NCBI GenBank assembly: GCA_030684355.1
Contig: JAUXTN010000246.1
Span: 5,272-69,271 of the forward strand
Length of the DNA: 64,000 nucleotides
Reading direction: 5' to 3'
Source: Pseudomonadota bacterium
GTDB lineage: Bacteria > Myxococcota_A > UBA796 > SXON01
The notes under the pieces are model-generated. The model was not told where the DNA came from, did not search any database, and saw only the letters and a program-made list of their open reading frames with translations. Numbering within the stretch: the first letter of the stretch is position 1; each line of letters starts with the position of its first letter. Of this stretch, positions 11,211-64,000 are shown in pieces. The translations under genes were made by a program, and so were the position numbers.

Positions 11211-11230
11211 GCAACTGGGATGTAGTTGCA
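11211..11230. promoter_or_regulatory. Candidate Fur-family operator upstream of the permease
   Basis: GCAACT-N7-AGTTGC palindrome; same half-site as 14990-15004. Confidence 0.45.
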
Positions 11231-11264
11231 CGGCGGGCCCCGGCGGGGCACGCTGGCGCGCCCG

Positions 11265-13793
11265 ATGCCGACCCTCCTTCTCTCCCTGCTGGCGATGGCG
11301 CTCGCGCCCCTCGCGGACCGCGTGCTGCGTGGCCGTCCGCGCGCGGCGGGGTTCACGGACGGGCTCGTGCAGGTCGTGGTGGGCGGCATCCTGCTCGTGC
11401 ACGTGGTGCCCTTCGGGCTCGCGGCGGCGGGCTGGCCCGCGCTCTTGACGCTCGGCGGCGGCGCGATGGTCGGGCTCCTTGCGCACCAGGTGCCCGGCGG
11501 CGAGCGGTCGGCCGGGGCCCTGGCGGTCTTGGCGCTGCTCCTGCACGCCGGCATCGACGGGGCCGCGCTCGCGGCGCCGGACGAGCACGGGCAGCACGCC
11601 GGCGAGGGCATGCTGGCGTGGGCGGTCGTCCTGCACACGCTCCCGGTGGGGCTCGCCACCTGGCGGATCAGCTCGCAGCGCGCGGGCCCGCGGTTCGCGG
11701 TGGGCCTGCTCGTCGCGACCGGCGCCGTGACCGTGGCGGGATGGTTCGCCGCGGACGGCCTGCTGGCCGGGGCCTCCCCCGCCGCGCTGGGCCTCGCGGA
11801 GTGCGCCGTGGCCGGGGCCCTCCTGCACGTGCTGGGGCACGCCGGCGAGGATCTGCCGCGGCGCCCCGCCGGGTGGGGCGGGCTCGTGGGCGTCGGCATC
11901 GTGGCGGTGCTCGCATACGGAGATCCGCTCCCGCCCGCCCACGCGGGCGAGCTCGACGCGGTGCGGGCGTTCACGACGCTGCTCCTGGAGATCGCGCCCG
12001 CCTTGCTGCTCGGCTACCTCGCGTCCGCCGCGCTCCGGATCGTCGGCCCCGGGTCCGTGGCCGGGTGGCTGGGCGCGCGTACCGACCGGGCGAACGCCGG
12101 CGTGGACGGGGGCGGGGGCGGGGGCGGACGTGGACTCGGAACCGGTGGCGGTGGCCCCGGCGGGCGCCTGGCCGACGCCCTGCGCGGCGTCTTCATGGGC
12201 GTCGCCGTGCCCGTGTCCTCCTGCGCGGCCCCCCCGGCCTACCGCACCGTGCTGGCCCGCGGGGCGCCCATGGCGGCCGCGCTCGCGTTCCTCGTCGCGG
12301 GCCCCGAGGTGGGCGTCGGCACCGTGTTCGTGAGCCTCCCCCTCCTCGGGATGAAGCTCACCGGCCTGCGCATCGCGGCGGCGGTCGCGGTCGCGCTGCT
12401 CGTCGCGCTCCTCCTCGCCCAGCGGAGCGGGCCCGGCCAGCCCGCTCCCCCCGCGTCGCCTCGCCCGCCGCTGTCCGCCCGCATCCGTGCCGGCGTGGCG
12501 TTCGGGCTCGTCGAGACCGTCGACCACACCGCGCCGTGGATCCTCCTCGGGCTCGGCATCGCCGCGCTCACCGAGCCCCTCCTCGCAACCGGCGCGCTCG
12601 CGGCCGTGCCCGGCCCGCTGGCCGTCGTCGTGGCCACGCTCATCGGCCTCCCCGCGTACGTGTGCGCCACGGGAGCCACCCCGCTCGTAGCGATGCTCCT
12701 CCACAAGGGGCTCTCGACGGGCGCCGCCCTCGCGTTCCTGCTCACGGGGCCCGCCACCAACCCCGCGACCTTCGCGCTGCTGCGCCGCCTGCACGGCAAC
12801 GCCGTCGCCCTCCGCTTCGGCCTCGGCGTGGCGCTCGCATCCATCGCGATCGGCCTCGCGGTCGATCTCCTCCTCCCGCCCGTGGCGGTCCCGGCGCTGC
12901 ACGTCGCCTCGGCGAACGAGCCGAGCTGGGTCGCGATCGGCGCCGCGATGGTGGTCCTGGCGCTCTTCGCGGCCGCGCTCGTCCGCAACGGCGCCGCGGG
13001 CTTCCTGGAACCCCTCCTCCACCCCCACGCCTACGCCCACGAGGGCACGAGGCACTCGCACGGGGCGCACTCCCACACCCACGCACACCGGATGGTGGAC
13101 GAGGGGCGCGGGGAGCATGGGCATCGGCACGAGCACGGGCACGGGCGCGATCATGGGCGGGGGCACGGGCACGCGGGCGGGCGCGGCACGGAGGGTGAGA
13201 GCGAGCCTCGGCGGATGGTCGGTACCCGGGAAGCGGACGAGCACGGGGACGGGCACGCGGGCGGGGGCGGCACGGAGGGTGAGAGCGAGCCTCGGCGGAT
13301 GGTCGGTACCCGGGAAGCGGACGAGCACGGGGACGGGCAGGGGCAGCACGAGCACGAGCACGAGCAGCACGAGCACGGGCACGGGCACGGGCACGGGCAC
13401 GGGCACGGGCACGGGCACGGGCAGCACGAGCACGGGCACGGGCACGCGCAGGGGCACGGGCAGGAGCAGCACGAGCACGAGCACGGGCACGGGCACGGGC
13501 ACGGGCAGGGGCAGGGGCACGGGCACGGGCACGGGCAGCACGAGCACGGGCAGGGGCAGGGGCACGAGCACGAGCACGAGCAGGGGCAGGGGCAGGGGCA
13601 GGGGCAGGGGCAGGGGCACGAGCAGCACGAGCACGGGCACGGGCACGTGCACGGGCACGTGGCCGAAACCGAGCGCGAGAGGGAGCCTCGGCTGATGGTC
13701 GGCACCCGGGAACCGGACGTGCGCGAGCACGTTCAGGAGCCGGTGGAGGACGAGGGGTTGAGCCCTCACGGGCCGGGGCGGCGGGAGAGCTGA
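11265..13793 (+). CDS. Metal permease: ZIP-like N-terminal region + ArsP_1/DUF318-type permease + His/Gly-rich tail
   Basis: LLHAGIDG and VVLHTLPVG (ZIP-like); [34 protein letters not shown] (DUF318-like); about 250-aa HG/HE/QG tail. Confidence 0.8.
13167..13730 (+). repeat. 84-bp tandem duplication plus hexamer microsatellite inside the His-rich tail
   Basis: 13167-13250 and 13251-13334 near-identical; (GGGCAC/GAGCAC/GGGCAG)n at about 13335-13660; degenerate third unit about 13655-13730. Confidence 0.9.
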
Positions 13794-15372: not shown

Positions 15373-15448
15373 CGGGGTGTGGCGCAGCTGGTAGCGCGCT
15401 TGGTTCGGGACCAAGAGGCCGCAAGTTCGAATCTTGTCACCCCGACCA
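15373..15448 (+). tRNA. tRNA-Pro (anticodon CGG)
   Basis: Acceptor stem CGGGGTG/CACCCCG, anticodon arm CTTGG-TTCGGGA-CCAAG, T-loop GTTCGAAT, encoded CCA; 76 nt. Confidence 0.97.
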
Positions 15449-17014
15449 TACCGGATGGCGCAGGGTCCCACCAAGGGATTCTGCGCCATCCTCGTTTTTG
15501 GCACTCGCGAGTTCTGCAAGTGCATCGAAGGGTTTCCGGTACGTCGGCACCACGACTCCCGAGCGCAATTCGCAGTTCGAAAGAAGCAGATTGAGCAGCT
15601 TCCTCTGTTGCGACGGCTCTTTGGTGAGATACAGGTCGTACGCCGAACTTACGAGTTCTAAGACCTCCAGGGCCGTATCCATGACCTTGTGGTCGACCCG
15701 GGCGTACCGCTCGATGTCCTCGTGGGCGGACTGCATCCCTTCCTCCCACTCCAGGCGCTTGCGGGCGAAGAAGGCCTCGTCGACGCGGCCCTCGAGCTTG
15801 TCCTCGTAGGCCTTGTCGAGCATGCGGCGGAGGCGGTCGTAGCGGGCGCGTGCGTCGGCGAGGCGGATCGTGGTCTCGCGCACGACGTCGACGCGGGACG
15901 CCTTCAACGCGCGCGTGGCGAACGCGAGCTTGTCGGGGGGGAGTTGGAGCCCCTTGACCACCACGTGGGCGAACTGCTCGGTGATGCGCTCCTCGCGCAC
16001 GTAGGAGGACAGCTCGCACAGCTGCGCGCAGCGGTAGTAGGTGTACTTCTTCTTCTTCATCTCGGCGGTGATGGCGGCCCCGCAGCCGCAGGTCATCAGC
16101 CCCTGGTAGACGAAGTTGCGCGGGGCGGGCCGGGTGTCGGGGAACCCGTCGAGGCGGTCCTGCACGCGCTGCCACAGCTCGCGTGTCACCAGGGTGGGAT
16201 CCTTGCCCCGGTAGATGGTGCCCGCGAAGCGGAACTCGCCAGCGTAGATCGGGTTCCGGAGGATGAGGTGCAGCGCGCTGGGGTTGAGCTTGCCCCCGCG
16301 GCGCCCGGTCAGGTTGTAGTTCTTCGAGTACGCGACGAGGTCCTGGATGGAGTGCTGGCCCCGGTCGTAGAGGTCGAACAGGTTGCGCACGAGGACGGCG
16401 CGCTCGGGGTCGGGGACGATGAAGCTCTTGTCCCCGTCGCGCCGGTTCAGGTACCCGAAGGGGGCGACGCTGGGCCAGTACCCCTCCTCGGCCTTCATGA
16501 ACATGCCCTTCTTGACCTCCTCGGAGAGGTTGTCGACGTAGTTCTTGGCCATCAGCACCTTGATGCCGTGCATGAATTTCTCGGAGGACCGCGAGTCCTC
16601 GGAGACGACGATGTTCTCCTTCACCAGGTGGATCTCGGTCTTCATCTCGTCGACCGTGACCCAGTCCTTCAGGTTGCGGTACAGGCGGTCGGTCTTCTCG
16701 ACGAGCACGGCGGGCGGGTTCTGGTGCCGCTTGCGGACGTAGGCGAGCATCCTCTGGAAGTGGACGCGCCCCGTCCGCTTGGCGGTCTCCACGTCGATGA
16801 ACTCTTCGAGGATGTGGAACCCGCGATCGGCTGCGTACTCGCGGAGCAGCTTCTGCTGGGCGGGGATGGAGAAGCCCTCGCGCTCCTGGTCGCGGGAGGA
16901 GACGCGCGCGTACAGGACGGCGGGGCGGCGAGGGGGAGCCGGGGGCTCGACGATGGTGGGCTTCGAGGGGCTGCGGTCGCGACTGCTGTAGCGCACGTTG
17001 AACTCCGGGCCCAC
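15437..17014 (-). CDS. Large serine recombinase (integrase)
   Basis: YARVSSRDQ catalytic Ser, KTDRLYRN, recombinase domain APFGY...ILRNPIYAG, zinc ribbon CGCG...YYRC, coiled coil. Confidence 0.95.
   Translation of the reverse strand: MGPEFNVRYSSRDRSPSKPTIVEPPAPPRRPAVLYARVSSRDQEREGFSIPAQQKLLREYAADRGFHILEEFIDVETAKRTGRVHFQRMLAYVRKRHQNPPAVLVEKTDRLYRNLKDWVTVDEMKTEIHLVKENIVVSEDSRSSEKFMHGIKVLMAKNYVDNLSEEVKKGMFMKAEEGYWPSVAPFGYLNRRDGDKSFIVPDPERAVLVRNLFDLYDRGQHSIQDLVAYSKNYNLTGRRGGKLNPSALHLILRNPIYAGEFRFAGTIYRGKDPTLVTRELWQRVQDRLDGFPDTRPAPRNFVYQGLMTCGCGAAITAEMKKKKYTYYRCAQLCELSSYVREERITEQFAHVVVKGLQLPPDKLAFATRALKASRVDVVRETTIRLADARARYDRLRRMLDKAYEDKLEGRVDEAFFARKRLEWEEGMQSAHEDIERYARVDHKVMDTALEVLELVSSAYDLYLTKEPSQQRKLLNLLLSNCELRSGVVVPTYRKPFDALAELASAKNEDGAESLGGTLRHPVWSG
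15453..15499 (+). terminator. Rho-independent terminator after tRNA-Pro
   Basis: GGATGGCGCAG...CTGCGCCATCC stem followed by TCGTTTTT. Confidence 0.75.
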
Positions 17015-17091
17015 CGTTGGGCCGGTTCAAGTTGACATAATCGGAACCGATTGGAAACCCGCCACCCGATCGTCAGGGGCCGGTTCGTGCT

Positions 17092-19995
17092 TTACGCCGG
17101 TTCGAAGCTATAGAGCGGCGGGTGCCCCTTGCGCGGCTCGTCGCGACGCAGGCGGTAGCGCACATCCCCCACGGGGAACGTCGTTCCGTCGAGGTATCCC
17201 GTGAAGAGCTGGCCGATGATGGTGGCCTGGGCGCGTGCCGCGCGGAGGTTCCCCTTGCCGTCCGAGAGCTTCTCGGCGAGGACGCCGCGGGCCAGAAGGG
17301 TGGCCCACTCGCCTGCCGTCTGCGGGCCTTGCTCGTGATGTGCCGCGCACACGTCAACGAGCAGATCGTAGTCGGGGTCGAATGCGTGCTCGGAGTCGGC
17401 GAAGTTGGTGAGGAAGCCGTCGAAGCCCACACCGCGCAGGATGGCATCCATCGTGGCCGCCCAGCGGCGGTTGGTGCTGTGCGTGGCCGGCTGCTCCGGC
17501 ATCGGCTGACCGGCCCGAAGCCATGCCGCGACCATCCCCGCGAGCTCCGCGACGACGGCGAGCCGGGCGGCGAGGGCGTCACCCACGGGGTCGTCCGTGC
17601 GGTAGCGGTGGCGCCGGACATCGCCATCCACGAGGAGGTTGAGAGGCAGGGCGCGGCGGCGAAGATCCGCCCCCATCTGGGTGAGGTTCATCGTCACGAC
17701 GAACAGCACGTCGTTCAGGGGCCGGGTGATCGCCGTGTTGCTTCCGAGCCGACGAAAGTTCAGCCGGGTGTCGGTGATGCACCGCTCGAGTACGGGGCTC
17801 TCGATGGGACGGGCGGTCTTGGCGTTGTCGATCACCACGATCCGGTCGCCCGCCTCCACACGCGTGGCGAGCTGCTTCTCGAATTCCTCCTCGTTCGGGG
17901 TGAACGAGACGGTGGTGGGCTCGGTGCCCTCGGCGACCACCCCGAGCACTCGCGCAAGGGTGCTCTTCCCGACACCCGGCTTGTTCCCGTTGATGGCGAG
18001 GAAGGGGTGTCCTCGCCCCCAGTGCGGCATGGTCAGGGAGGTGAGGAGCGCGCCGATGAAGTTCACCATGTCGATGGCGTCCTTCCACGGGAAGTCCTGC
18101 ACGACGGCGAGGAGCCGCGTCACGCCGTCCACGGGCACGACCTCGGGCCCGTCGTAGAAGATGCCGCTTGCCGGGTGGAAGCCGGGCCTCCCCACGAAGG
18201 TCCACTGACGGTCGAATAGCGGGGTCCGCGCGTACATGGTGAGCATGGGCAGCTTGGCGGCGACGCGCGGTGAGTGGACGAACGCGCGAGACAGGTCCGA
18301 GGGGAGCACATCGAAGCGCTGGAACGACACGCCCTCGTCGGACGCGGAGAGGAAGCGGATCTCCACCAGCGCGGAGAGGAGCCCGGGCAGGCTGCGCTCG
18401 TCAACGGGGCGGGGCCCGAACCCGCGGCGCACGAACACGATGTCGCGCTCGAAGCGGAAGAAGCGGTTGGCAGGGGCCACCGCGGCCACCAGCGCGTCGA
18501 ACAGCCCGTCGACGGTGTCGCGGTTCTCGATGAAGTCGACGACGGGCAGGCCCGGCCGGGAGGGCGGCGACGCCTGGCTGCGCTGCCTCCGAGCGTCCCG
18601 ACGCGCCTCCACGAGGGCCGCCTCGAACGTCCGGGCGGTCAGACCGGCGATCGTGCGTACCTCCTCCAGCGCCGGCTCACGCGAGAGCGCAGGGAGCGTG
18701 ATCAGCGCTTGGAGCGTCGCGCGCATGGCCGCAGCGCGCGCCTCCGGCCCCGCGGCTGATCCCCAGGCGTCGCGGAAGGTGGCGACCAGGGAATCGATCG
18801 GCGGAGGCCCGGGCACCGGCATTCCTGAGAGCTCAGCGACCCGGGCGGCGGCGGCCCGGAAGTCGGCCGCCTGGCCCCTGCCGATGAGGAAGTCGAACAC
18901 GGAGAGCGACTCCCCCCGGACGAACGAGTGGAACGTGGCACGTTCTGCCTCGCCCGAGCCGTCCGCCACCCCTGCGGACGGATTGCGATCTCCGCTCTCG
19001 GACCAGGGATCGCGGCACTGAAGCCAGCCAGCGCCGGAGGCCTTCCCGGTGAGCAGGCCGCCGTACACGGCGGACAGGGGGAGGCGTTCGAGGGCAGCTC
19101 GCCGCCAATCCGTCCAGGCGGGCGACGGCGGTGTCGCGGGGGTGCTCGGACGTGCCGGCCGCGGCGGGGGCACCGCCGGCGCGGGGGGCACCTCCACATC
19201 GACCTCCGCGACGGCCAGCCGCTCGAACAGGTCCACGTCGTCCGGGATGGTGTCGAGGTCGATTGAGGCAAGTCGATGGGGGTGCTCCGCTGTCGGCGGT
19301 CCCTTCACCGCAACCGTCCCGTAGAGCTTGAGGATGCGCGACGGGTTGAAGGTGGACCGGTCGACCTTGGCGCCAGGCGTGGAGAAGCGGGTGTCGAGCA
19401 GGGCCAGGAGCCGGCGCGAGGCCTGCGCGTACCGCGCAACGTCGTCGCCGAACGCGGGCACCAACGGGACCAGCAGGTGGTAGCCGTTGCCGCTGTCCGC
19501 GAGCATCGGGCGGACGCCGTGCTCGTGGAACCACGCCCCGACCCGTGCCGCGACGGCGAACGCTTCGGCCTTCTCCGCGTCGGTGGCAGAGCGGTCGCGG
19601 GGCCGGCGCTCCGGGTCGATGTCGACGACCAGGAGCGAATAGGCGTGGATGTCTCGGTCCTTCGTGGCGCGGGACACCCGGCGGAGCGGGAGTCCCATCG
19701 GCCGAGCGGCCCCCAGGCCGACCGCCTGCAGGCTGAAGTAGATGCCCGCCTCGCCGCTTCGCGGGTGGTCCCCCTGCGGGACCTCGGCCCGCGGCGTGCC
19801 CGCGGCCGGACGGAGAGCGCCCATCAGGGCGTCCACGTCGCGCGGGCCGACAAAGGCGGACCACACTCCCGATGCCTTGCCCAGGATGCGGATCTCCGTG
19901 GCCCCGCCGAGCGCGGCGTTGCGGTCGAGGATCCATACGAGGAACGCCCGGAGGCAGGGCTCGCCGGCCCCCTCCTGCTTCAGCTCCGGCGGCAT
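17092..19995 (-). CDS. AEP-type primase-polymerase fused to a P-loop (SF3-like) helicase
   Basis: VVDIDP, DSGNGYH, VDRSTFNPSRILKLYGT (AEP motifs I-III); degenerate CHC2-like segment; Walker A GNKPGVGKS, Walker B IVVIDN, motif C TMN. Confidence 0.8.
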   Translation of the reverse strand: MPPELKQEGAGEPCLRAFLVWILDRNAALGGATEIRILGKASGVWSAFVGPRDVDALMGALRPAAGTPRAEVPQGDHPRSGEAGIYFSLQAVGLGAARPMGLPLRRVSRATKDRDIHAYSLLVVDIDPERRPRDRSATDAEKAEAFAVAARVGAWFHEHGVRPMLADSGNGYHLLVPLVPAFGDDVARYAQASRRLLALLDTRFSTPGAKVDRSTFNPSRILKLYGTVAVKGPPTAEHPHRLASIDLDTIPDDVDLFERLAVAEVDVEVPPAPAVPPPRPARPSTPATPPSPAWTDWRRAALERLPLSAVYGGLLTGKASGAGWLQCRDPWSESGDRNPSAGVADGSGEAERATFHSFVRGESLSVFDFLIGRGQAADFRAAAARVAELSGMPVPGPPPIDSLVATFRDAWGSAAGPEARAAAMRATLQALITLPALSREPALEEVRTIAGLTARTFEAALVEARRDARRQRSQASPPSRPGLPVVDFIENRDTVDGLFDALVAAVAPANRFFRFERDIVFVRRGFGPRPVDERSLPGLLSALVEIRFLSASDEGVSFQRFDVLPSDLSRAFVHSPRVAAKLPMLTMYARTPLFDRQWTFVGRPGFHPASGIFYDGPEVVPVDGVTRLLAVVQDFPWKDAIDMVNFIGALLTSLTMPHWGRGHPFLAINGNKPGVGKSTLARVLGVVAEGTEPTTVSFTPNEEEFEKQLATRVEAGDRIVVIDNAKTARPIESPVLERCITDTRLNFRRLGSNTAITRPLNDVLFVVTMNLTQMGADLRRRALPLNLLVDGDVRRHRYRTDDPVGDALAARLAVVAELAGMVAAWLRAGQPMPEQPATHSTNRRWAATMDAILRGVGFDGFLTNFADSEHAFDPDYDLLVDVCAAHHEQGPQTAGEWATLLARGVLAEKLSDGKGNLRAARAQATIIGQLFTGYLDGTTFPVGDVRYRLRRDEPRKGHPPLYSFEPA

Positions 19996-20799
19996 CTACG
20001 ACGCGCTTTCGGGCGGAGTCTCGCGGACCACGGCGACGATCATCCGCGCGCCCTTCTCGTTGTAGGCGAACGAGAGCTGCGGCCCCCCGTCGCGGGCCGC
20101 TCCGACGGCCGCCCGAGAGTAGGCGGGGGCCCCCCGAATCCCGAGCTGCCGGATCGCGAAGGCGACAGCCTCCTCGGACGCCCCCGCGGCGGCGGCGATC
20201 TCCGCCGCCGAGTACCAGCGTTCGTCCGGTTGGGGCTCCGAGAGCGATGTGAACAGGAGCAGTGTGCGAACCGCGCCTCGCACCAGCCCCGACTCCAGGG
20301 CACGCTGGACCAGGTGATCGAACGCGTGCCGTCCGCGCGCTTCTGGCCGGTCGGTACGAGGGACGAGGACGACCAGGACAAGCTCGCTCCCGTCCTTGGC
20401 GGGCGCCGCACGCGGGTGCTGCGCGATGCGCGGGAGCACCCCCTCGTCGAGGACCGAGAGCAGGCGGGCGCCCGCCGGAGTCGGCGTCTTCCCGAGGACC
20501 CGGTGGAGCCCGGCGGACGTGAGGAAGAGTGGGTGAGCCGCGCGCGCCGCGCGAGGGTCGGGTCCGCCGAGCAGCTCGGCGAGCGCCTCCGCCTCGGGGA
20601 TGACGTAGTCCTCGCCTTGCGTGAACTCGCGCTGCCACTCGTTCGTGACCAAGGTGCCCAGGCGGCGGCCGCGGTTCGGGTAGTCGAGGAGCTCTCCCAC
20701 CTGGGTGCATCGCCAGACCGGCTTGCCATCGAGGAGGAAAGTGTCGAGGCGCCGCCCGTCGAGGAGGGAAACGAGAGCGAGGCCAGTGTAGTGATTCAA
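19996..20799 (-). CDS. BRO-N / phage antirepressor-like protein
   Basis: DGKPVW..QVGELLDY, FTQGEDY, FLTSAGLHRVLGKTPTPAG...EGVLPRI; TTG start overlaps upstream stop. Confidence 0.7.
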   Translation of the reverse strand: MNHYTGLALVSLLDGRRLDTFLLDGKPVWRCTQVGELLDYPNRGRRLGTLVTNEWQREFTQGEDYVIPEAEALAELLGGPDPRAARAAHPLFLTSAGLHRVLGKTPTPAGARLLSVLDEGVLPRIAQHPRAAPAKDGSELVLVVLVPRTDRPEARGRHAFDHLVQRALESGLVRGAVRTLLLFTSLSEPQPDERWYSAAEIAAAAGASEEAVAFAIRQLGIRGAPAYSRAAVGAARDGGPQLSFAYNEKGARMIVAVVRETPPESAS

Positions 20800-21083
20800 G
20801 GCATCTCCGGGGGGAACTTCCGGCCGCGGGGCCGGCGCGGGCGCTTCCCGGAGACCATCTCCGGAGGCGCCGCCACTTCCTGCTCCGGTGCCTGAACCTC
20901 CTCGACGGCGCGCGCGTCGGCACGCCACTCGCTGAGGAGCGAGAGCACGTCCGTCACGCTCCGCGTCATGCCGTGCCCCTGATCGAGCGAGAGAGGCTCG
21001 TCGTAGTGGGGCTGGAAGACCTCGATGGCGAGCATCGCGAGGTCGCCAGCGGCGTCGGCGGAAGGCGGTTCAGACCGGAGCAT
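20796..21083 (-). CDS. Small protein of a type found beside serine integrases (candidate RDF)
   Basis: EVFQPHYDEPLS...VTDVLSLLSEW pattern; translationally coupled to BRO-N; function inferred. Confidence 0.5.
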   Translation of the reverse strand: MLRSEPPSADAAGDLAMLAIEVFQPHYDEPLSLDQGHGMTRSVTDVLSLLSEWRADARAVEEVQAPEQEVAAPPEMVSGKRPRRPRGRKFPPEMP

Positions 21084-21162
21084 GGGCGGAAGGTCGCCCG
21101 GCCCGGTTGTTCGTTCACTTGTACGGGAGAGGCCCGCGCCGCGGTGCGCTCACGGACGATCC

Positions 21163-23496
21163 TTAGTTTTCCGGGCGTGGACGCGAACGGCCCTTCAATC
21201 GATCGAGCTCATCGTCGAATCGGAAGCCGCGGGCCCGCAGAGGGGGTCGAAGGCGAATTCCGTTCCTTCCTTGGTTCTCGATGATCGCCTCGGCGGGCGC
21301 CTTGCCGATCTCCCTGCGGAGCCGGAGAAGATGCTGTGCAATCGTGTCGGGGGTCAGGGTGCGGCTCTCGTCGAGGGCGCAGAGGTCCGTGCGCTTCGCG
21401 AATTCGGTCCACCCGTGGCTCTCCCCCCACTCCTGCAGAAGCGCGAAGAGGAGCCTGTACAAAGGCATTTGCGGGCCCAGGATCGTCACGGTCCCCAGGC
21501 GGATGCCTCCGGTGGCGTCGGGCTCCACCCAGAGGGCCTCGTCCGTGTCCGCCGGGGGGGTGGGCTCCTCGTAGGCCCGGAGAATCACCGCCACCCCGTC
21601 GGCGAGGATGTCGGCGAAGCGGATGGAGGGCAGGCCCTGCTCGTCGGTGTGGGGGTCCAGCGCAATCCACCGGCAGCGCGGGGTCCCGGCGGACCGCCAC
21701 TCGGCGCCGGCCACCTCGAGCACCGCGAGCAGGTGCCGGCCGCGAGCGGGAACGCGCTTGCTGAACACACCCGGCTCATCCTCTTCCCACTGGCTGGCCG
21801 TCAGCTCTCCGCGCAGCCACGCCATCGCGGCGAGGACCAGCACCTGTACCCGGACGCGGTGGAGCCACGCGGGCCGGACGCGGTCGAGCGACCACTCGTG
21901 ATCGAAGTCACACACGGCGCGAGCGCCAGGCTCCTGGGCGAACTCGTCCTCGCTGCTCACCGTGCCGAACGGCAAGGTGACCTCCGAGGGGCAGTGGAGA
22001 GAGCCCGGGGGGCGGAAGGCGGCCGGAATACGGGTGTCTCCGCAGCGGAAGACACTCTCATGGCCGACGTGGACCAAGCCACGTTCGACGAGGGCGTTGA
22101 GCTCATCCCGCTGCCACCTGGCCGGCTGGTCGATGCGCCCGGAGAGCAGGATCGCGTAGTGGTCCCCGTCGAGCCGGCGTGGGCTGTTCTCGGCGCCCTG
22201 GTGTCGCCGACGACGGCGAGCGTCCGCCACCTTGGGGTGGATCTCCACACCGAGCTCGTTGAGCATCTTCGCGCGGAAGCGGTCGACCGTGTCCTTGTTG
22301 GTGCTCGTGTCTGCGAGCGAGAGCGCCAGGTCCTTCTCCTCATCGTGGGGCTCCGGAAAGAACAGCGCCATGCGGTAGTGCTCTCCCTCGTCGGCGAAGC
22401 TGATCTTCACGCGGTCGACGTGCCGCGAGTCCCGCGCGAATCCGAAGTGGCGACGCTGCGCCTGGGCGAGCTCCTCGACCCTCCCGCGCCCGGCGCGGTG
22501 GAGGGTGATGAGCGCCGGGTCCGCGTGCCCGGCCGTGGTCCCCACGATCTCGTGCAGCAGGAAGGCGGGGTCGTCGGCGTCGAGGAGCCGCTCGAGGAAG
22601 GCGTCGAGCCGCTCGCGGTTCAGCGGGTCGCGGGCGTGCTTGTACTGGACCTCGGCACCGAAGAGGAGGGTCCCGATCGCCGAGGCCAGCGGCAGGGCGC
22701 GGTCCATGTCGCGGGTGGTGATGTCCACCCTGGCGCCGCGGGCGTGGAAGCGGAGGAAGGTGAGGTCCTCCTTGGACATCGCCCGGGCGCGGTCCTCCTC
22801 GGGATCCCACTGGACCGAAGAGGTGCCGTGCCCGCGGAAGACGAGGAGCGCGTCATCGAGCCAGTCGCGGACGAGGGCCCGTTCGAAACGGAGCCCCTCG
22901 ACCGCGGATGCGGGCAGTCGGGCGTGACGCAGGCCCTCCTCCGCCAGCGTGTCCCAGGACAGCTCCGCGAGCGGCCGAGGGAGGCGTCGCTGGTGCCCCT
23001 GCAGCTTCATCGCCGCGCGTCCGCGTGGCAGCCACGCATCCCAGTAGTAGACGTCGGCGAGGCTCGCTGGCGCGTGCTGGAGAAGCCCGGCGAGCGCCGC
23101 CAGCCGGCGCTGGGCGCCCATCAGGTACGTGGCCCGTAGCGGGTCGGGCAGCGCGCGCCGGCAGGCCGACTCGATCGCTCGGAAGGACTTCTCCTCCGCG
23201 AACCACGCGAGGAGCATCAGGTGGGCGTGCCCGTGTTCGGAGCCCCACGCCTCGAGGAGCGAGCGAGCGACGGCGCGTTCCGTTGATCGGGACCAGAGGC
23301 GGTCGAACTCGGCGCCGACGGCGCCTTGGCGCACGAGACGACCGAGCTCGTTGAAGCGGCCGACGCGGAGCTCGCCGACCCAATAGTCCTCGGCGGGTGG
23401 GGCGAGCGGATTGAACGGCACAAGCACGGACGGGCTCCCCGAACCGGGGATGCGTCTTGGCGGGGAGCCGGACGGCCGCGATTCTGGTTGCCCCAA
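21163..23496 (-). CDS. Large hypothetical protein with C-terminal winged-HTH-like domain
   Basis: 777-aa ORF; C-terminal TPDTIAQHLLRLRREIG...IIENQGRNGIRL resembles an OmpR-type wHTH; start uncertain. Confidence 0.6.
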   Translation of the reverse strand: MGQPESRPSGSPPRRIPGSGSPSVLVPFNPLAPPAEDYWVGELRVGRFNELGRLVRQGAVGAEFDRLWSRSTERAVARSLLEAWGSEHGHAHLMLLAWFAEEKSFRAIESACRRALPDPLRATYLMGAQRRLAALAGLLQHAPASLADVYYWDAWLPRGRAAMKLQGHQRRLPRPLAELSWDTLAEEGLRHARLPASAVEGLRFERALVRDWLDDALLVFRGHGTSSVQWDPEEDRARAMSKEDLTFLRFHARGARVDITTRDMDRALPLASAIGTLLFGAEVQYKHARDPLNRERLDAFLERLLDADDPAFLLHEIVGTTAGHADPALITLHRAGRGRVEELAQAQRRHFGFARDSRHVDRVKISFADEGEHYRMALFFPEPHDEEKDLALSLADTSTNKDTVDRFRAKMLNELGVEIHPKVADARRRRRHQGAENSPRRLDGDHYAILLSGRIDQPARWQRDELNALVERGLVHVGHESVFRCGDTRIPAAFRPPGSLHCPSEVTLPFGTVSSEDEFAQEPGARAVCDFDHEWSLDRVRPAWLHRVRVQVLVLAAMAWLRGELTASQWEEDEPGVFSKRVPARGRHLLAVLEVAGAEWRSAGTPRCRWIALDPHTDEQGLPSIRFADILADGVAVILRAYEEPTPPADTDEALWVEPDATGGIRLGTVTILGPQMPLYRLLFALLQEWGESHGWTEFAKRTDLCALDESRTLTPDTIAQHLLRLRREIGKAPAEAIIENQGRNGIRLRPPLRARGFRFDDELDRLKGRSRPRPEN

Positions 23497-23550
23497 CGCC
23501 GACAGTTGACGTTTATTCGCCGATTCTTCGAGGGCGCGTCGAACGTGCCC

Positions 23551-24360
23551 TCAGTGAGCGTGCCCCCCGTGGTCGTGCCCGCCTGCGGGCGCCGCCTCTC
23601 CGGCCGCTGGATTGAACCCTAGCGAGAAGCTCGTCTCGCCCACCTTTACATCCACCATCACGGGCCGCGTGCCGGCCCCGTCGTGCTTGCCGGAGAGCAC
23701 GCCCGCCGCGGGGTCGAACGTGAGCGGGACCACGGTGTCCCCGTCCTTCAGGGAGCCGGTCACGCCCGTCACCTGCGCACGCTTGGCGTCGGTGACCCAC
23801 ACCCGGTGCTCGCCATCTTTGGGCGCGTACTCGAGGTGGTAGTCCCCCCACATCCCGACCTGACCGCCGTGGAGGGAGGTGTGGTCGTGCTCCTGGAGGC
23901 CCACGGACTTTGTCTCGAAGGACACGCTCTCCGCCTTCCCGCCGAACGTGAGGGTGAGGACCGCGGTGGCTGCGTCCTCCTGCGCGAGCTTCGCCGTGGC
24001 GTGGAGGTGATCCCCCATCGGCGCGAGCGTCACCGTCTCGACGCCGCTGGGGCTCTTCACGACGGCAGTGCCCGCGAAACCCTCCACGGGGAGCGGCTTC
24101 TGGGCGCTGTCGGAGACGTAGAACATGATGCCGCCGGGCATGAAGAGCGCCTCGACGTGGTGCTGGCCCACGGTCTTGACCTCGCCGCCATGGGGGCTTG
24201 CGTGGGCGTGCGCGCCGCTGGCGTGTCCGGAGGCCGCGGGCGCAGCAGGCGCCGCGGGTGCGGGGGGCGCGCTGGGTTGGGCCGGCGCGGCGGGCGCCGG
24301 TGCGGTGGGCTCGGAAGAGCAGGCGGCGACGAGGATGAGGAGCGGGAGCAGGGTGCGCAT
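23551..24360 (-). CDS. His-rich lipoprotein associated with metal RND efflux
   Basis: LVAAC lipobox; two HxHxxxHGG units; C-terminal GHDHGGHAH. Confidence 0.75.
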   Translation of the reverse strand: MRTLLPLLILVAACSSEPTAPAPAAPAQPSAPPAPAAPAAPAASGHASGAHAHASPHGGEVKTVGQHHVEALFMPGGIMFYVSDSAQKPLPVEGFAGTAVVKSPSGVETVTLAPMGDHLHATAKLAQEDAATAVLTLTFGGKAESVSFETKSVGLQEHDHTSLHGGQVGMWGDYHLEYAPKDGEHRVWVTDAKRAQVTGVTGSLKDGDTVVPLTFDPAAGVLSGKHDGAGTRPVMVDVKVGETSFSLGFNPAAGEAAPAGGHDHGGHAH

Positions 24361-24404
24361 GGAGATTTTCCTGGGTGTGAGCTGGGAGGTGGGGGGCGAA
24401 GGAG

Positions 24405-27400
24405 TCACGGAGCCTCGAGCGGATCGACGGTTTCGGAGCTGGCCACCAGCGAACGGAGCGCGTCGCCCCCGAAGCGGAGGAACATGGTGGGAGTCACCAC
24501 CATGTCCAGCAGCGTCGAGGAGAGGAGCCCACCCAGGATCACCTGGGCCACCGGGGTGAGGATCTCCTTCCCCGGCGTGCCGCCTGCGAAGGCGAGCGGG
24601 ATGAGCGCGATGCCAGCGCACAGTGCTGTCATGGCGACCGGGACGAGGCGCTCGAGCGAGCCACGGATGACCATCTCCGGCCCGAAGGATTCGCCCTCGT
24701 GGCGGACGAGGTGGATGTAGTGGGAGATCATCAGGATGGTGTTGCGCGAGGCGATGCCACACAACGTGATGAACCCGACCAGCGTTGCGACCGACAGAGG
24801 CTGGCCCGAGATCCAGATCGCCGCGACCGAGCCAATCAGTGCGAGAGGAATGTTGAGGAGCACCTGGAGCGTCAGCGTGTGCGAGCGGAAGTGTGCGTAG
24901 AGCACCGCGTACATACCGGCGAGCGACAGCAGGGAGAGGAGGCCGATGGTGCGGCTTGCCGACTGCTGGCTTTCGAACTGGCCGCCGATGGTCCAGTAGT
25001 ACCCTGTCGGGAGCGTCAGCCCCGCCAGGGAGGTCTGGATGTCGCCGACGACGCTCCCGACGTCCCGCCCGGCCGTGTTGGCCGAGATGGCGATGCGGCG
25101 CTGGCCGTCCTCATGGACCACCTGGTTGGGCCCGGTTCCCGCGGACACCTCCGCGAGCTGGCCCAACGTGACCGCACGCCCTTCCTCCAGCGATACCGGA
25201 GCGATCCCGATGCGGTCGATGTCCCCGCGCCACTCGGGCGCATATCGCGTCACGAGATCGAGGCTCCGCACGCCGTCGAGCACCTGTGCGACACGTACGC
25301 CGCCGAGCGCGGTCTCGAGGTCCTCCGCGAGGTGCCCCGGCGGTACGCCGAAGCGCTTGGCTGCGTCCCGGTCGATGCGCACCTGCACCTGGGGGATCAG
25401 CACCTGGCGCTCGACCTGGAGATCCACGAGCCCGGGGATGGGCGCGAGCTGCTGCTCGATGCGCGCGGCCTCGCTCCGGAGCGTGGCGAGGTCGGGCCCG
25501 AACACCTTGATGGCGATCTGCGCTCGCACGCCCGAGAGCAAGTGGTCGAGCCGGTGGCCGATCGGCTGGCCGATGTTGATGACCACGCCGGGGAGCCGCG
25601 CGAGCTTCGCGCGGATGTCGGCCAATACCTCCTCGCGCGGGCGGCCCTCCCGCTCGAAGTCGACGTCGATCTCGGTGTAGTGGACCCCCTCGGCGTGCTC
25701 GTCCATCTCCGCGCGCCCCGTGCGGCGGCCGGTGCTCTTGACCTCCGGGACCTCGAGGAGGAGCCGCTCCGCGAGGCTGCCGAGCTTGTCCGACTCGGTG
25801 AGGCTCGTGCCGGGCGTGGCGAGCAGGTTGACCGTCGCCGTGCCCTCGTTGAAGGGTGGCAGGAAGCTCGTACCCAGGAAGGGCACGCTCGCGATCGCCA
25901 GGACGACCGCCGCGGCGACGGCGAACAGGATGGTCTTCGGGCGGGGCAACGCCCAGACGAGCGCCCGACGGTCGAGGCCCTTGAGCTTGCGAACCAACCA
26001 ACCGTCGGCGTGCTCCTTCGCCTGTGTCATCTTCGGGAGCAGGTAGGACGCGAGGACCGGCGTGATGGTCAGGGACACGACCATGGAGGCCAGGATCGAC
26101 GCGATGTAGGCGATCCCGAGCGGCGCGAAGAGCCGGCCCTCGATGCCCGAGAGCGCGAAGAGGGGGATGAAGACCAGGATCACGAGGATCGTCGAGAAGA
26201 CGATGGAGCTCCGGACCTCCACGCTTGCGTCGAGGATGACACGCAACGGAGATCGCGGGTTTGGAAGGATGCGGTTCTCCCGTAGCCGCCGATAGACGTT
26301 CTCCACGTCCACGATCGCGTCGTCTACGAGCTCGCCGATAGCGACGGCGAGGCCGCCGAGCGTCATGGTGTTGATGGTGAGACCGAAGGCCTGCAGGGCG
26401 AGCGCAGCCACGACCATCGAGAGGGGGATCGCCGTGAGGGTGATCGCCGTCGTGCGGACGTTGAGGAGGAACAGGACGAGGATGATGGTGACCAGGATCG
26501 CCCCGTCCCGGAGCGCCTCCTCGACGTTGGCGACGGAGGCCTCGATGAAGTCGGCCTGACGGAAGAGCGGCACCACGTCCACGCCCTGGGGCAGACCGCG
26601 ACGGAGCTCGTCCAGCGCGTGCTCGACCTGCTCGGTCAACACGATCGTGTCGGTGCCCGGCTGCTTCTGCACTGAGAGGATGACCGCCGGCTGGCCGTTC
26701 ACGCCGGCATCACCGCGCATGGTGCCGACGCCCCGGCGCACGTCCGACACGTCCGACAAGGTGATCGGGACGCCGTCCTTCGTGGCCACGACCGTGTCCC
26801 CGATCGCCGCGGGATCGGCCGTGCGGGCGAGGTTGCGGACGACGTACTCCTGGCTCTGCTGCTCCAGGAAGCCGCCCGTCGTGCTGCCCTGCGCGCCGGC
26901 GGCCGCTTCGCGCACATCCCCGAGGGTAAGCCCGCGCTGGGCGAGCCGATCAGGGTGGACCTCTACGTGGAGCTGCTCGACGCCACCGCCAATGGCGATC
27001 ACCTGCGAGATCCCGCCAATCGAGAGGAGGCGCGGGCGGAGCGTCCAGTCGGCGAGCGACCGGAGCTCGGGCCCGGGGACGGTCCCCTCGGGCGACACGA
27101 CGCCGATGAGGAGGATCTCTCCCATGATCGAGCTCACCGGGCCCATCGTCGGCACCACGCCTTCGGGGAGCGACTCGGCGACCTGCGCGGTGCGCTCGGC
27201 CACCTGCTGGCGCGCCCGGTAGATGTCGACGTCCCAATCGAACTCCACCCACACGACTGAGAGCCCGACCGCGGACTGGGAGCGGACTCGCTCGACGCCC
27301 GGGGCGCCGTTCATCGAGGTCTCGATGGGGCGGGTGACGAGAAGCTCGACCTCCTCCGGGGAGAGGCCGCCTGCCTCGGTGAGCAGGGTGACGGTGGGGC

Positions 27401-61129: not shown

Positions 61130-61175
61130 TCGACATAGCAGGCATCCTTGGATGAAGATCGACGAACGGTCTCGG

Positions 61176-61664
61176 CTACGCTGCCTCCACCCCAATCTCC
61201 CCGAAACGCCCCAACGGCACCGCCTTCCGCATCCCCGGCCGAAGCCGCACGGCGAACTCCGCCACCGTCCCTCCGCTCGCCCCCGAGGTGAACCGCGGCC
61301 CGAGCGCATCGCCCGCGGCGAGCTCGGCGGCGAGCTGCGCCCGGAGCACGTCGACGGCGGCCGGCGGCACGATGAGGACGAGCGCGCCGTGGTGATTGTA
61401 GAAGCCGATCTCGCCCATGAGCTTCACCGGGATGGAGAGCCCCTCGCCGTCGGGGATGGCGAGCGGGTACACGTCGACCGGGCCGGCGGTGCCCGACCGC
61501 TGGTACCGCGAGCCGATCATCAGCGGGGCGAGCGCCTCGGCGAGGTCCATGCCGACGAGGGCCTTGAGCCCGTCGAAGGAGAACGGGCCGAGCCGCACGG
61601 CCGTGGTCGGCGCGGTGAGGTTGACCCGCAGCGCCGAGCGGTCCTCGCGAAGAGCCGGGTTCAC
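61176..61664 (-). CDS. Hypothetical protein
   Basis: 162-aa ORF with gene-like codon usage, GTGA-coupled to upstream gene. Confidence 0.7.
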   Translation of the reverse strand: MNPALREDRSALRVNLTAPTTAVRLGPFSFDGLKALVGMDLAEALAPLMIGSRYQRSGTAGPVDVYPLAIPDGEGLSIPVKLMGEIGFYNHHGALVLIVPPAAVDVLRAQLAAELAAGDALGPRFTSGASGGTVAEFAVRLRPGMRKAVPLGRFGEIGVEAA

Positions 61665-62221
61665 GCGCCCTCCGTCGCGTCCGCGGCGGGACGCCGCGCG
61701 TTGGCGGGGAGCACCTCGGGCACGAGGGCGTCCCCGTTGCCGTGGTCCTCCTCCTCCACCTCCATCGCGTCCTCGAGGTCGGTGTCCTCGTCACCCTCGT
61801 CCCCGTCGTCGGCGGGGTCCTCATCGGCATCGTCGTCACCCTCACGCCCGCGGGCCGCGCCCTCGAGCAGGTCGAGCATCTCGTCCTGCCCCTTGGCGAT
61901 GACGACCAGCGCCTTGCGGATGCCGGGGAGGTGCCGCAGGGCGGTGAGCGCCTTCGGGTCGAGCCCGCCGAGCGCGGCCTGGATGCCCTTGAGCGTGGCG
62001 TGGATGTCCGCGAGCGCCTGGACCTGGCGGAAGGTGAGGTGCGCCTGGTGGAACGCCTGCTCCTCGGGCTCCATCTCTGCGAAGGCCTCGGCGGACTCGA
62101 GGAGCGCCTCCTTCGTGCGGCCGTCGAAGCTGTCGGCGTAGAAGCGGTCGATCACATCGGCCCACTCGGGCTTCTTCTCGGTGCGGATGCGGGGCAGACG
62201 GGTAGCGCGGGTCTCCGACAT
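61661..62221 (-). CDS. Hypothetical protein with acidic C-terminal tract
   Basis: GGAGG RBS; helical N-terminus; D/E-rich tail. Confidence 0.75.
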   Translation of the reverse strand: MSETRATRLPRIRTEKKPEWADVIDRFYADSFDGRTKEALLESAEAFAEMEPEEQAFHQAHLTFRQVQALADIHATLKGIQAALGGLDPKALTALRHLPGIRKALVVIAKGQDEMLDLLEGAARGREGDDDADEDPADDGDEGDEDTDLEDAMEVEEEDHGNGDALVPEVLPANARRPAADATEGA

Positions 62222-62257: not shown

Positions 62258-63283
62258 TCAGGCCGCGGCGGGCTGGTCCTGCGGCGAAGCGTTCGGGGGC
62301 GCGGCGGAGCGAGCGGCCATCATCAGCAGCTCGGCGAGCTCCTTCCGCGTTTTCTCGTCCCGGAGCATCTTGCGGACCTCCGGGTTCTTCATCGCGTCCA
62401 ACAGCTCGGGCGACGCGTTGACGATCTCGGCGAGCTCCATCAGCTCGGGCGCCATGCCGAACTTGGCGGAGGCGAAGACGCGGCCGAAGGTCCCGAGCTC
62501 TGAGATGAACTGCTTGCCGAGCTCCTCGCGCATGCGGCTCGCGTCCACGTCCTCGCGGCGCGTGGTGTCCGCCTCCGCGACGCCGACGCGCATCTTGACC
62601 ACCTCGCCCATCAGCTCCTCGAGCACCCGCTGGAGCCGCAGGATCTGCGTGTTCTGGTTCGAGATGGTGGTGTTCTGGAGCGTGGCGAGGTGGGCGTAGG
62701 ACTTCTGGAGGAGCTCGATGAGGTGGGTGTAGCCGCCCCCCAGCGCGCCCCAGACACGGGCCTCGGGCAGGGATTCGAGCGAGGGGTGCGCGGGCGCGGC
62801 GGCCACCGTGGGGGCGGGGAAGGACGAAGCCGGGAGCGCGGTGGATGCGGGCACCGACGGCGCGACCGGCGCGTCCGGATCGAACGTCGGATCCATGCAA
62901 CCGAAGCGCGCCGAGAACAGGATCTGTTCGCCCTTCGGGCGCCACACGAACACGCGGAACCGGCACTCGGCCCGACCCGGCATGTTCTGGGAGGCCGTCT
63001 CCCGGATCCAACGACACACTCCCTCGGCGAGGCGCAGCGCGGGGTCGTCTAGCGTGGCCGCGTCACCGAGCTCCCCGAGCTCGCCCGCCTCCTCGAACTC
63101 GACCGGAGGCGCGGGGTCGAACGCATACGGCGCGAGGTCCGTCTCCGTGAAGTCGACACGGCCGATCCCCTCGATGTGGTGGCGGTCCACCACCTCGGAG
63201 ACGGAGACGTAGCCGATGTCCGCGCGCACCTGGCGGATGCGGCGCTCGATCGTTTCCAGGGAGTCGTACACGTATCGCGACAT
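62258..63283 (-). CDS. Hypothetical protein with Pro/Ala linker and C-terminal coiled coil
   Basis: ATG 63283 (MSRYVYDS...); long helical C-terminal region. Confidence 0.75.
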   Translation of the reverse strand: MSRYVYDSLETIERRIRQVRADIGYVSVSEVVDRHHIEGIGRVDFTETDLAPYAFDPAPPVEFEEAGELGELGDAATLDDPALRLAEGVCRWIRETASQNMPGRAECRFRVFVWRPKGEQILFSARFGCMDPTFDPDAPVAPSVPASTALPASSFPAPTVAAAPAHPSLESLPEARVWGALGGGYTHLIELLQKSYAHLATLQNTTISNQNTQILRLQRVLEELMGEVVKMRVGVAEADTTRREDVDASRMREELGKQFISELGTFGRVFASAKFGMAPELMELAEIVNASPELLDAMKNPEVRKMLRDEKTRKELAELLMMAARSAAPPNASPQDQPAAA

Positions 63284-63359
63284 CGGTCGATTTCCGGGGG
63301 CCAGCGAGGTCGCCAACCGTGCTGGAACCGTATCTCAGCACCGCTTCCACGGGCGGAAA

Positions 63360-63635
63360 AACCGCTTACCGCCTCCTACCGCGCTTACCGCGTACGCCTA
63401 CCGCGCCCGGCCGATTCCTTACCGCAGTGGTTTCCGCGGCTTGGAATTGACTTACCGCGCGCCCAAGCGTCGTCTACCGCGCCACGATCGGTTTCGAGGT
63501 GCGCTTACCGCGGCCTCAGGGTGCGCCTACCGCGCGGCGCGCACGCTTTCCACGCGACCCTCATCGTCTACCGCGGCGGGGGTGGCACTTACCGCCAGGA
63601 TGTCGATGGGGCGCGGTAGGAAGCGGTAAGCGGAA
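63360..63635. repeat. Helically phased YTACCGC iteron-like array
   Basis: TACCGC at 63367, 63377, 63386, 63399, 63420, 63453, 63475, 63506, 63528, 63569, 63590; inverted GCGGTA at 63613 and 63623. Confidence 0.85.
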
Positions 63636-63745
63636 GTCCCTTCCTGTGCCGGTTCGGGGCTCATAGTTGGTTTGTGTCGGCCGGGTTGTGCCGGCCCCCC
63701 ACTCTGACCGGCACGGCTGGTCCCATCCCCGAGGAAGTCACCCCC

Positions 63746-64000
63746 ATGAGCACCGCTCTCTCCAAGGCCGTCGCAGGCGAGAAGGTTCCCGACAGCAAGA
63801 AGAACGGCGTCCTCTCCGAGGCGCTCGACAAGGTCAAGAGCCTGGGCGGGCGCATCTCGAAGGCCAAGGAGATGTCGGAGACGCTCGCGGACGCCGTGAT
63901 CGCCACCGCGGAGACGCAGGGCACCGTGTTCGCGGCCTCGTTCGCCGAGGGGTACTTCGGCGAGGAGAAGATGGACGTGGGCCCGGTCGACCTGCGGCTC
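63746..64000 (+). CDS. Hypothetical protein (partial; runs off right edge)
   Basis: GAGG RBS, ATG 63746; MSTALSKAVAGEKVPDSKKNG...FAASFAEGYFGEEKMDVGPVDLRL, open to the window end. Confidence 0.75.
   Translation, partial: MSTALSKAVAGEKVPDSKKNGVLSEALDKVKSLGGRISKAKEMSETLADAVIATAETQGTVFAASFAEGYFGEEKMDVGPVDLRL

Follow-up and report, generated by a model that had tools for sequence, protein, structure and literature searches.

The repeat array and the genes that face it

The subject of this study is an array of short repeats near the right end of the window, i.e. of the whole 64-kb stretch of DNA that was analysed (positions 5272-69271 of contig C164 in genome G000, an assembly of 7.71 Mb in 258 contigs with 71% GC). 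The array separates two divergent operons, whose genes were called from the GC content of the codon positions (GC1 above GC2/GC3). The leftward operon (- strand) begins with the gene of protein A (341 amino acids; 62258..63283) and continues with p186 (61661..62221), which gives an all-helical protein with an acidic tail; its third gene, p162 (61176..61664), codes for a beta-rich protein. Gene B (206 amino acids; + strand, from 63746 to the window end at 64000 and for 366 bases past it) is the first gene of a conserved rightward module, some 20 kb long. A preliminary description of the window, made from its letters, had placed the repeats between divergent genes of no recognised family; searches of Pfam, PHROGs and NCBIfam assigned none of p162, p186, A and B to a family.

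The repeated hexamer TACCGC occurs eleven times in direct orientation (+ strand; 63367, 63377, 63386, 63399, 63420, 63453, 63475, 63506, 63528, 63569 and 63590) and twice in inverted orientation (- strand; 63613 and 63623), so that the whole array extends over 63367-63628; these counts, obtained by motif search, are those given by the preliminary description. The array is real and lies far beyond chance. It gathers 13 of the 42 TACCGC matches of the window, for which dinucleotide shuffling (100 shuffles) predicts a whole-window total of 17.3 +/- 3.9, and the frequency of the hexamer in the assembly is 0.43 per kb, both strands included. At least five copies within 300 bp are found at four places in the assembly, the array holding 13 and the runner-up, an unrelated tandem repeat on contig C1, holding 7. 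Besides the array, two repeat clusters with TACCGC or GCGGTA were seen in the genome, at G000:C1:177498-177712 (units of about 21-24 bp containing GCGCTACCGCGCTG) and at G000:C146:26545-26816 (a repeat about 37 bp long, at the contig end), and both are unrelated to the A/B genes described here.

The direct sites follow each other at 10, 9, 13, 21, 33, 22, 31, 22, 41 and 21 bp, the spacings from 13 bp onward separating the nine further sites (63386..63595, + strand) that come after the first pair. In a test of phasing by the Rayleigh R, in which the period was scanned from 9 to 12 bp and the result compared with random placements, the eleven direct sites gave R = 0.85 at a best period of 10.7 bp (P = 0.005-0.006), and at a fixed period of 10.6 bp the probability was 0.002. 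The offsets from 63399 that had been listed earlier (21, 54, 76, 107, 129, 170 and 191 bp) are reproduced, and the placement of the sites on one face of the helix, proposed from those offsets, holds against random placements. The repeat had been taken as 6-7 bp long; the 6-bp core stands, and the conserved unit is longer, with the consensus cgC-Y-TACCGC-G, in which C(-4) is found in 10 of 13 sites, C(-2) in 11, Y(-1) in all 13 and G(+6) in 9. Sites with one mismatch are present on the + strand at 63339, 63360 and 63432 and on the - strand at 63353 and 63630, and the longer gaps between direct sites are occupied by the weaker TTCCGC (63432) and TTCCAC (63548, found by eye).

Two trivial origins of such a run are ruled out, as had already been proposed. 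A CRISPR array has repeats of at least 23 bp with spacers of similar length, whereas here the conserved unit is 6-11 bp and the spacings range from 9 to 41 bp; as for a microsatellite or tandem repeat, the TRF program detects only 3.2 copies of a 9-bp unit (63363-63392).

The core word in related elements

Contigs of this genome are designated below by C, the loci fetched for comparison by L and the related genomes by G. Protein A has matches in 31 of the 61 related genomes, this one included, with 4 matches here, 21 in G022 and 15 in G036, figures that count matches and not copies. The relatives that carry a name are Myxococcota or 'proteobacterium' metagenome-assembled genomes, and the 82 homologues of A that were found are all unnamed or 'hypothetical protein', none of them with a Pfam domain. 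Among the 46 loci fetched for the comparison of A and B, 25 have the starts of the two genes facing each other across 376-549 bp. Every A-B gap that was read contains a run of short repeats at the same position, and the repeated word differs between elements while position and spacing are kept; conservation of the array next to homologues of A, a check called for by the preliminary description, is thus observed at each gap read.

The core is TACCGC in C164 and in its orthologues L004 and L020, TACAGC with TTACCAC in C148, L021, L022 and L025, CAACAGC in L024, TTGCCGC with CTGGCCGC in C93, L028, L032 and L033, TTGCTGC in L038 and L040, [ATG]ACCGC (AACCGC being one form) in C70, L031 and L034, CTCCCC[AG]C in L050 and L053, and TCCGCC in L051. 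The four A/B copies of this genome have four different cores. The phasing accompanies the change of word: in 14 arrays of 6 motif classes the best period is 10.6-10.9 bp in every case, the scan gives P <=0.01 in 12 of them and the commonest spacing is 21-22 bp, it being understood that the pattern of each class was picked by eye and that arrays related by descent do not make 14 independent tests.

In the three orthologous arrays, that of C164 and those of two other genomes (L004 and L020), no column of the motif varies (0 of 78), while the spacers vary in 42 of their 184 columns (P = 1.3e-7, Fisher test). The word is under purifying selection and the spacers drift, as judged from these alignments, and this is the signature of a protein-binding word rather than of a structural or slippage repeat. 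Near-identical contigs from three sequencing runs differ in the array at the spacer positions 63393, 63411 and 63487 only, and a more distant run contig is changed at 63387 and 63389, inside a site; both observations are weak and are not part of the main evidence. A 6-mer repeated at least five times is present upstream of A in 34 of 44 loci, but coding controls give similar counts and no use was made of this figure as a statistic. In L006 (G022:C375) and L008 (G007:C135), A and the first part of the array are kept, and unrelated genes follow from a point within the array where B and its promoter would be expected; either the two copies are decayed elements or the array is a boundary prone to recombination, both being possibilities only.

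The preliminary description had seen in the array a platform for cooperative protein binding. The selection on the sites, the phasing in all 14 arrays and the exchange of the core within a constant layout argue strongly, though indirectly, for such a platform.

End pairs, promoter-like hexamers and the second locus

All eleven direct sites are directed at A, and the last two sites alone are directed at B. The array opens with the A-proximal double site cTTACCGC-ctcc-TACCGC (63365..63382), which on the - strand reads GCGGTA-ggag-GCGGTAAG and points towards gene A, and it closes with the B-proximal double site GCGGTA-ggaa-GCGGTAAG (63613..63630, + strand), which is inverted relative to the rest, points towards gene B and contains GCGGTAAGYGRAA, a sequence with a single occurrence in the whole genome. 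At 30 nt downstream of the A-proximal site lies the TA-centred, -10-like hexamer GATACG (63329..63334, - strand), read towards A, and at 31 nt past the B-proximal site lies CATAGT (63662..63667, + strand), also TA-centred and -10-like, ahead of the rightward operon, both distances being counted by eye. From their conservation and spacing we infer that the two hexamers belong to the promoters of the divergent operons. The double site at the array start, and with it the layout as a whole, recurs with the cores proper to each element in C148, C93, L024, L025, L032, L033 and L038, and the 'gtatc' of the A-side hexamer is retained in most related copies. On the B side, 10 of 10 aligned copies retain CATAG/CAATG, the spacer '(c)ccttcc' and two GC hairpins in the leader of B; the palindrome GGAAG-tcc-CTTCC (63632..63644, + strand) lies in the constant spacer that separates this hexamer from the B-proximal site.

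A scan of the array region for sigma-70-type promoters found none, which fits factor-dependent promoters. The arrangement itself, in which sites stand at a fixed distance and in a fixed orientation upstream of a -10-like hexamer with no -35 consensus, has the geometry of factor-dependent promoters, as far as sequence can tell.

The presumed leader of gene B (63679-63740) contains two conserved GC-rich palindromes. The first is the GC-only hairpin GGCCGG-N6-CCGGCC (63679..63696, + strand); the second reads GACCGGC..GCCGGTC in the sister copies, and neither is followed by a U-tract. The hairpin region has no match in Rfam and the terminator scan was negative.

A second place at which the word occurs was found in C93, where two further copies of its own word lie just upstream of a gene for a 1730-residue methylase/helicase, and the same place was then read in seven more elements. 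This second locus is present wherever an insertion separates the 1730-residue gene from the preceding genes, and it consists of two or three sites that point to the gene, read [core]AAG[CT]GAAA and are spaced by about 20 bp; in L064 and C252, which have no intergenic gap before this gene, there are no such sites. In L062, L065 and L066, the three loci where the spacing was counted, by eye, a TA-centred hexamer (ACTATT, ACTACG, GGTACG) stands about 31 nt past the last site and precedes the start codon, and the remaining second loci have similar hexamers (ACTAAT, GGTACA). The core of the second locus is GCGGCA in C93, L065, L061 and L062, GCTGTA in L063 and L066, and GCGGTA in L067. In the seven elements that have both loci on one contig, this core is found in 4-11 copies in the element's own array (7/7) and in 0-2 copies in the arrays of other motif classes, and the two loci are 9-14 kb apart. 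C253, whose second locus also has GCTGTA, was kept out of this count. The assembly is broken within the conserved module, and C252 and C253 carry the right halves of the C164- and C148-type elements; since both contig ends share the same 108 bp with the end of C164, the sister elements collapse in the assembly graph, their right halves are not assignable and the attribution of C253 to C148 is not independent. A single protein, acting in trans and specific to its element, is the best explanation for a word that changes together at two loci separated by 9-14 kb, and the fixed position of its sites upstream of promoter-like hexamers points to transcription control.

The element, the candidate binders and a proposed control of the module

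The array is carried by an integrated element. Its left end is marked by a tRNA-Pro(cgg) (15373-15448, + strand, found by ARAGORN), against which abuts a gene for a large serine recombinase (15437-17014, - strand) with Resolvase, Recombinase and Zn_ribbon_recom domains and a match to the phrog_95 integrase (E 7.5e-66). It is followed by a gene for a 967-residue primase/helicase-like protein (17092-19995; phrog_19930, E 8e-14, and a weak DUF5906), about 43 kb from the array, then by a weak BRO-N protein (E 0.017) and by a 777-residue protein without family match, whose C-terminus resembles by eye an OmpR-type winged helix that Pfam does not detect. C148 shares exactly two blocks with C164, from the recombinase to the 777-residue protein (window 15425-23417, 78% identity) and from 61183 to the contig end (80%); the homology with the other copies begins at about 61174-61183, at p162. 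These two blocks with differing cargo between them place the array inside an integrated element, whose right-hand conserved module starts at p162. In C164 the metal-resistance and efflux cargo (23500-61170, about 38 kb) includes two AcrB-type resistance-nodulation-division pumps, a copper P-type ATPase, a multicopper oxidase, an NtrC-type two-component pair, a DUF305 protein and a malate dehydrogenase; at the corresponding position, C148 carries a different and shorter cargo of only about 11 kb. To the left of the tRNA gene, an open reading frame for an ArsP-type permease (window 11226-13793) ends in long C-terminal repeats rich in His, Gly and Glu (HGHGHG..., HEHEQ...).

One rival reading, to which the primase/helicase-like gene lends some weight, takes the array for a replication origin whose short iterons would be bound by an initiator of the element, for example the 967-residue protein, in the manner of the P4 ori/crr or of the origins of Staphylococcus aureus pathogenicity islands (SaPI). 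A unit spacing of 21-22 bp resembles that of plasmid iterons, and eleven direct and two inverted copies do amount to repeated sites of which some are opposed. SaPI origins, in the excerpted account, likewise have 6-12 very short, island-specific penta- or hexanucleotide iterons, some of them opposed, bound by the winged-helix domain of Rep (PMC9371898). However, the iterons of that account directly follow rep and surround an AT-rich centre (PMC9371898, excerpt), whereas the region of our array lacks an AT-rich unwinding element (every 60-bp segment of 63250-63700 has a GC content of 0.60-0.75) and an adjacent initiator gene, and has a fixed geometry with respect to promoter-like hexamers. The primase/helicase-like gene is separated from the array by the cargo, the array accompanies the A/B pair even where the replication gene differs (C70), and the same cores recur at the promoter-like second locus. 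A second cluster of iterons was looked for near the replication genes (23400-24450) and none was found. We therefore consider an origin quite improbable.

The nature of the conserved module raises another possibility. The module is readable as a whole in C93 and C70, where it covers about 21-22 kb; it begins with B, a D-rich protein, two small beta-rich proteins, a 192-residue protein, a basic 268-residue protein, membrane proteins and a 478-residue protein, and ends with the 1730-residue methylase/SNF2 helicase (DarB-like PHROGs), a lysozyme-like protein, a C5 methylase and an 861-residue protein. In C164, the D-rich protein (254 residues) and further beta-rich proteins follow B up to the contig end, 1.7 kb beyond the window. 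The D-rich protein (L001 9692-10456; just past the window in C164) has about eleven tandem (F/L)GDDD repeats, an Arg/Lys-rich stretch and a beta-rich domain. The 192-residue protein (L016 8542-9120, C93), without family match, shows by eye a Cys...His...Asp pattern suggestive of a transglutaminase-like cysteine protease. The peptide RFIRAR is present at the C-terminus of B and again at the N-terminus of the basic 268-residue protein, and could be a processing or docking signal.

An array at the head of such a structural-looking module, with its small beta-rich proteins, basic arms, membrane and lysozyme-like proteins and DarB-like methylase/helicase, could serve for packaging or transfer, as a pac-, clt- or oriT-like site that a DNA translocase encoded in the module would recognise, and arrays of short element-specific repeats do mark pac and clt sites in other systems. 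Domain scans of the module proteins detected, however, no terminase, portal, FtsK/HerA-type ATPase or relaxase, and no partition NTPase or known initiator either; A and B have no relatives among the INPHARED phages or the PLSDB plasmids, and a search of 2.9 million viral contigs of IMG/VR for relatives of A was equally negative. A role in packaging or transfer accordingly appears very improbable, even more so than an origin.

As to the protein that would read the word, the preliminary description had proposed, besides the flanking proteins, the winged-helix, BRO-N and primase-helicase proteins. These are encoded about 40 kb away, in a part of the element that is not conserved with the array: homologues of the 967-residue protein are found in C164, C148 and C93 only, C70 having an unrelated 725-residue primase/helicase-like protein, and those of the 777-residue protein in C164 and C148 only. 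Since C93 and C70 keep full arrays without the 777-residue protein, and C70 also without the 967-residue one, they are unlikely binders.

Between C164 and C148, the two closest co-resident elements, the identity is 91% for B (188 of 206 residues), 84% for p162, 82% for the recombinase, 80% for the 967-residue protein, 76% for the 777-residue protein, 69% for A (236 of 341 residues) and 61% for p186; in the right halves, C252 and C253 are 93, 91, 84, 78, 98, 95 and 97% identical, with lower values, 57% and 63%, for two membrane proteins. A and p186, both adjacent to the array, are thus the most divergent soluble proteins, and this divergence makes them the best candidates for the array-binding protein: A as the candidate binder, p186 as a candidate regulator or partner. 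The high conservation of B makes it unlikely to set the specificity.

The AlphaFold2 model of A (mean pLDDT 82) predicts an alpha/beta head (residues 1-55 and 81-130, with two beta hairpins), a helix of about 100 residues (173-275) and a C-terminal helical bundle. Its structural matches are coiled coils only (Z 7-8, VIA-align wide); searches dominated by the long helix gave no Foldseek hit at E <=0.001 in PDB or BFVD and no PDB profile match. The hairpin loop of residues 33-37 ('DR-xxx-E') differs with every motif class, in a manner inseparable from descent. For p186, the model (mean pLDDT 66) has five helices and the acidic tail, its best structural match reaches Z 5.1, and a PDB profile search gave nothing better than E 1.6. 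In the ESM Atlas, A falls in unnamed clusters, the next two listed being mostly viral (scores 0.91-0.92), and p186 finds nothing above 0.76; we take these as leads only.

The predicted shape of A, a globular head followed by a long helix, recalls the proteins of plasmid segrosomes, and the array could be a centromere-like site, also autoregulating, of the R1 parC/ParR or KfrA type, on which A, perhaps with p186, would coat the sites and tether the excised, replicating element for segregation, the same binding serving to control the promoters nearby. In the excerpted account of R1, the par promoter has five 11-bp iterons on either side, and these ten or so short direct repeats lie on one helix face, are bound cooperatively and autoregulate the adjacent operon; at least ten phased short repeats beside a promoter are typical of parC (PMC2241845). 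The array, likewise phased, adjoins the presumed promoters of two operons. The KfrA of RA3, as excerpted, is a coiled-coil autoregulator encoded beside its operator, in an operon with a second helical protein; the operator has five contiguous 9-bp repeats, two of them inverted, which overlap one promoter and whose number and orientation matter (PMC7783346). A shares with KfrA a long, predicted coiled-coil helix and direct plus inverted short repeats at its own presumed promoter. Furthermore, in the myxobacterial plasmid pMF1 the ParB sites are likewise scattered over the replicon (PMC3235114, excerpt), and the primase/helicase-like gene makes an episomal phase of the element plausible.

On the other hand, no ParA, ParM or TubZ-type NTPase was detected with Pfam, PHROGs or NCBIfam in p162, p186, A, B and 13 other module proteins. 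Unlike the contiguous iterons of parC, our sites are mostly spaced by 21-22 bp, lie between two divergent promoter-like regions and recur at a distant one, with no ParM-like motor gene found. KfrA has an N-terminal helix-turn-helix, whereas the modelled head of A is alpha/beta, without a Pfam match to KfrA_N, and the array has 13 sites over 260 bp. As far as a low-confidence model of p186 (mean pLDDT 66) can tell, neither it nor A has the fold of a small ribbon-helix-helix or helix-turn-helix centromere-binding protein. The distant sites are gene-directed and, where counted, stand about 31 nt from a promoter-like hexamer, which again suggests transcription, and the element was found integrated. 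A centromere-like role of the array seems unlikely to us, although it and the control of transcription are not mutually exclusive.

Of the four functions that the preliminary description had left side by side, the genetic switch is the one we favour: the origin, the parC-like centromere and the packaging site are without their defining companions, and the end pairs located 30-31 nt from the hexamers of both operons, together with the distant promoter-like locus that has the same core, favour transcription control. The model we propose, which we hold to be slightly on the probable side, is that of a phased array of operator or activator sites for an element-encoded, element-specific regulator that would govern both divergent operons together with one or more promoters elsewhere in the element. 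The array would be the cis-regulatory hub of the conserved gene module of a Myxococcota integrative-element family. An element-encoded protein would read a word of about 8-11 bp (here cgCYTACCGCG) and its copies would line up head-to-tail along a single helix face, most often two turns (21-22 bp) apart. The array ends on either side in a pair of sites, the two pairs being mutually inverted, and each pair would stand immediately upstream of one of the divergent promoters, with sites at roughly -43 to -60; their position upstream of the hexamers suggests that these pairs probably recruit or gate RNA polymerase at promoters without a -35 box, activation being the effect that we infer. The nine further phased sites, directed at the A/p186/p162 operon, would provide cooperative, switch-like occupancy, and autoregulation would follow if this operon encodes the binder. 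The same protein would act at the further promoter(s) of the element through 2-3 copies of the same core. Finally, a core word proper to each element would allow co-resident relatives to keep their control circuits apart, as in heteroimmunity.

Parallels to this model exist among known regulators. The sites of OmpR/PhoB- and SARP-type proteins are direct repeats of 6-7 bp, placed every 11 or 22 bp upstream of promoters without a -35 box and bound head-to-tail on one face, and the Cox and Apl proteins of P2 and 186 recognise direct repeats, also phased, within the switch region that separates two opposing promoters. We regard these systems as probably the nearest functional analogues, with the difference that no OmpR- or Cox-type domain was detected in the conserved module and that the array, besides its greater length, has at its two ends inverted pairs for two divergent promoters. 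The nearest evolutionary analogue would be the immunity regions of lambdoid phages, where control of divergent promoters is exerted through an operator and a cognate protein that differ between relatives and thereby permit coexistence in one cell. Lambdoid operators are few palindromic 17-bp sites bound by helix-turn-helix dimers and located between repressor genes, whereas the array consists of 13 asymmetric phased sites between structural-looking operons.

Several points weigh against the proposed model. No known DNA-binding fold was recognised in the AlphaFold2 models of the two candidates, A and p186. Across 18 elements, the correlation of protein identity with the repeated 6-mers shared is weak (A 0.43, p186 0.22, B 0.08) and, because it is also confounded by descent, it was not used to name the binder. 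The case for the promoters is made from conserved hexamers and their spacing. In L031/L067, the second-locus core GCGGTA matches a minority variant of the array (4 copies) and not the B-proximal pair. Finally, two sites suffice at the other promoters, and the nine extra phased sites may have some other use (as a centromere, packaging signal or origin, for instance), for which the model does not account.

A bolder reading, which we regard as doubtful, would make the array the control hub of a new and possibly virus-like family. The alpha/beta head of A would be a new kind of DNA binder whose specificity is set by the loop of residues 33-37, its oligomers would read the phased asymmetric sites, and the whole would form a natural set of mutually orthogonal regulators and operators, by which up to four or more related elements would coexist in a genome and whose repeat track may double as a centromere or packaging signal.

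In conclusion, our observations describe related mobile elements that reside in one cell with the same architecture and in which a word of about 6 bp is exchanged at the array and at the distant promoter-like locus together. A literature search, which did not reach supplementary files, found no earlier description of this element family or of its array. The family is widespread and lies outside the standard collections of phages, plasmids and viral contigs. If the array is indeed read by one protein of each element, the exchanged words would constitute a natural set of operator variants for a regulator in Myxococcota, a phylum with few genetic tools.

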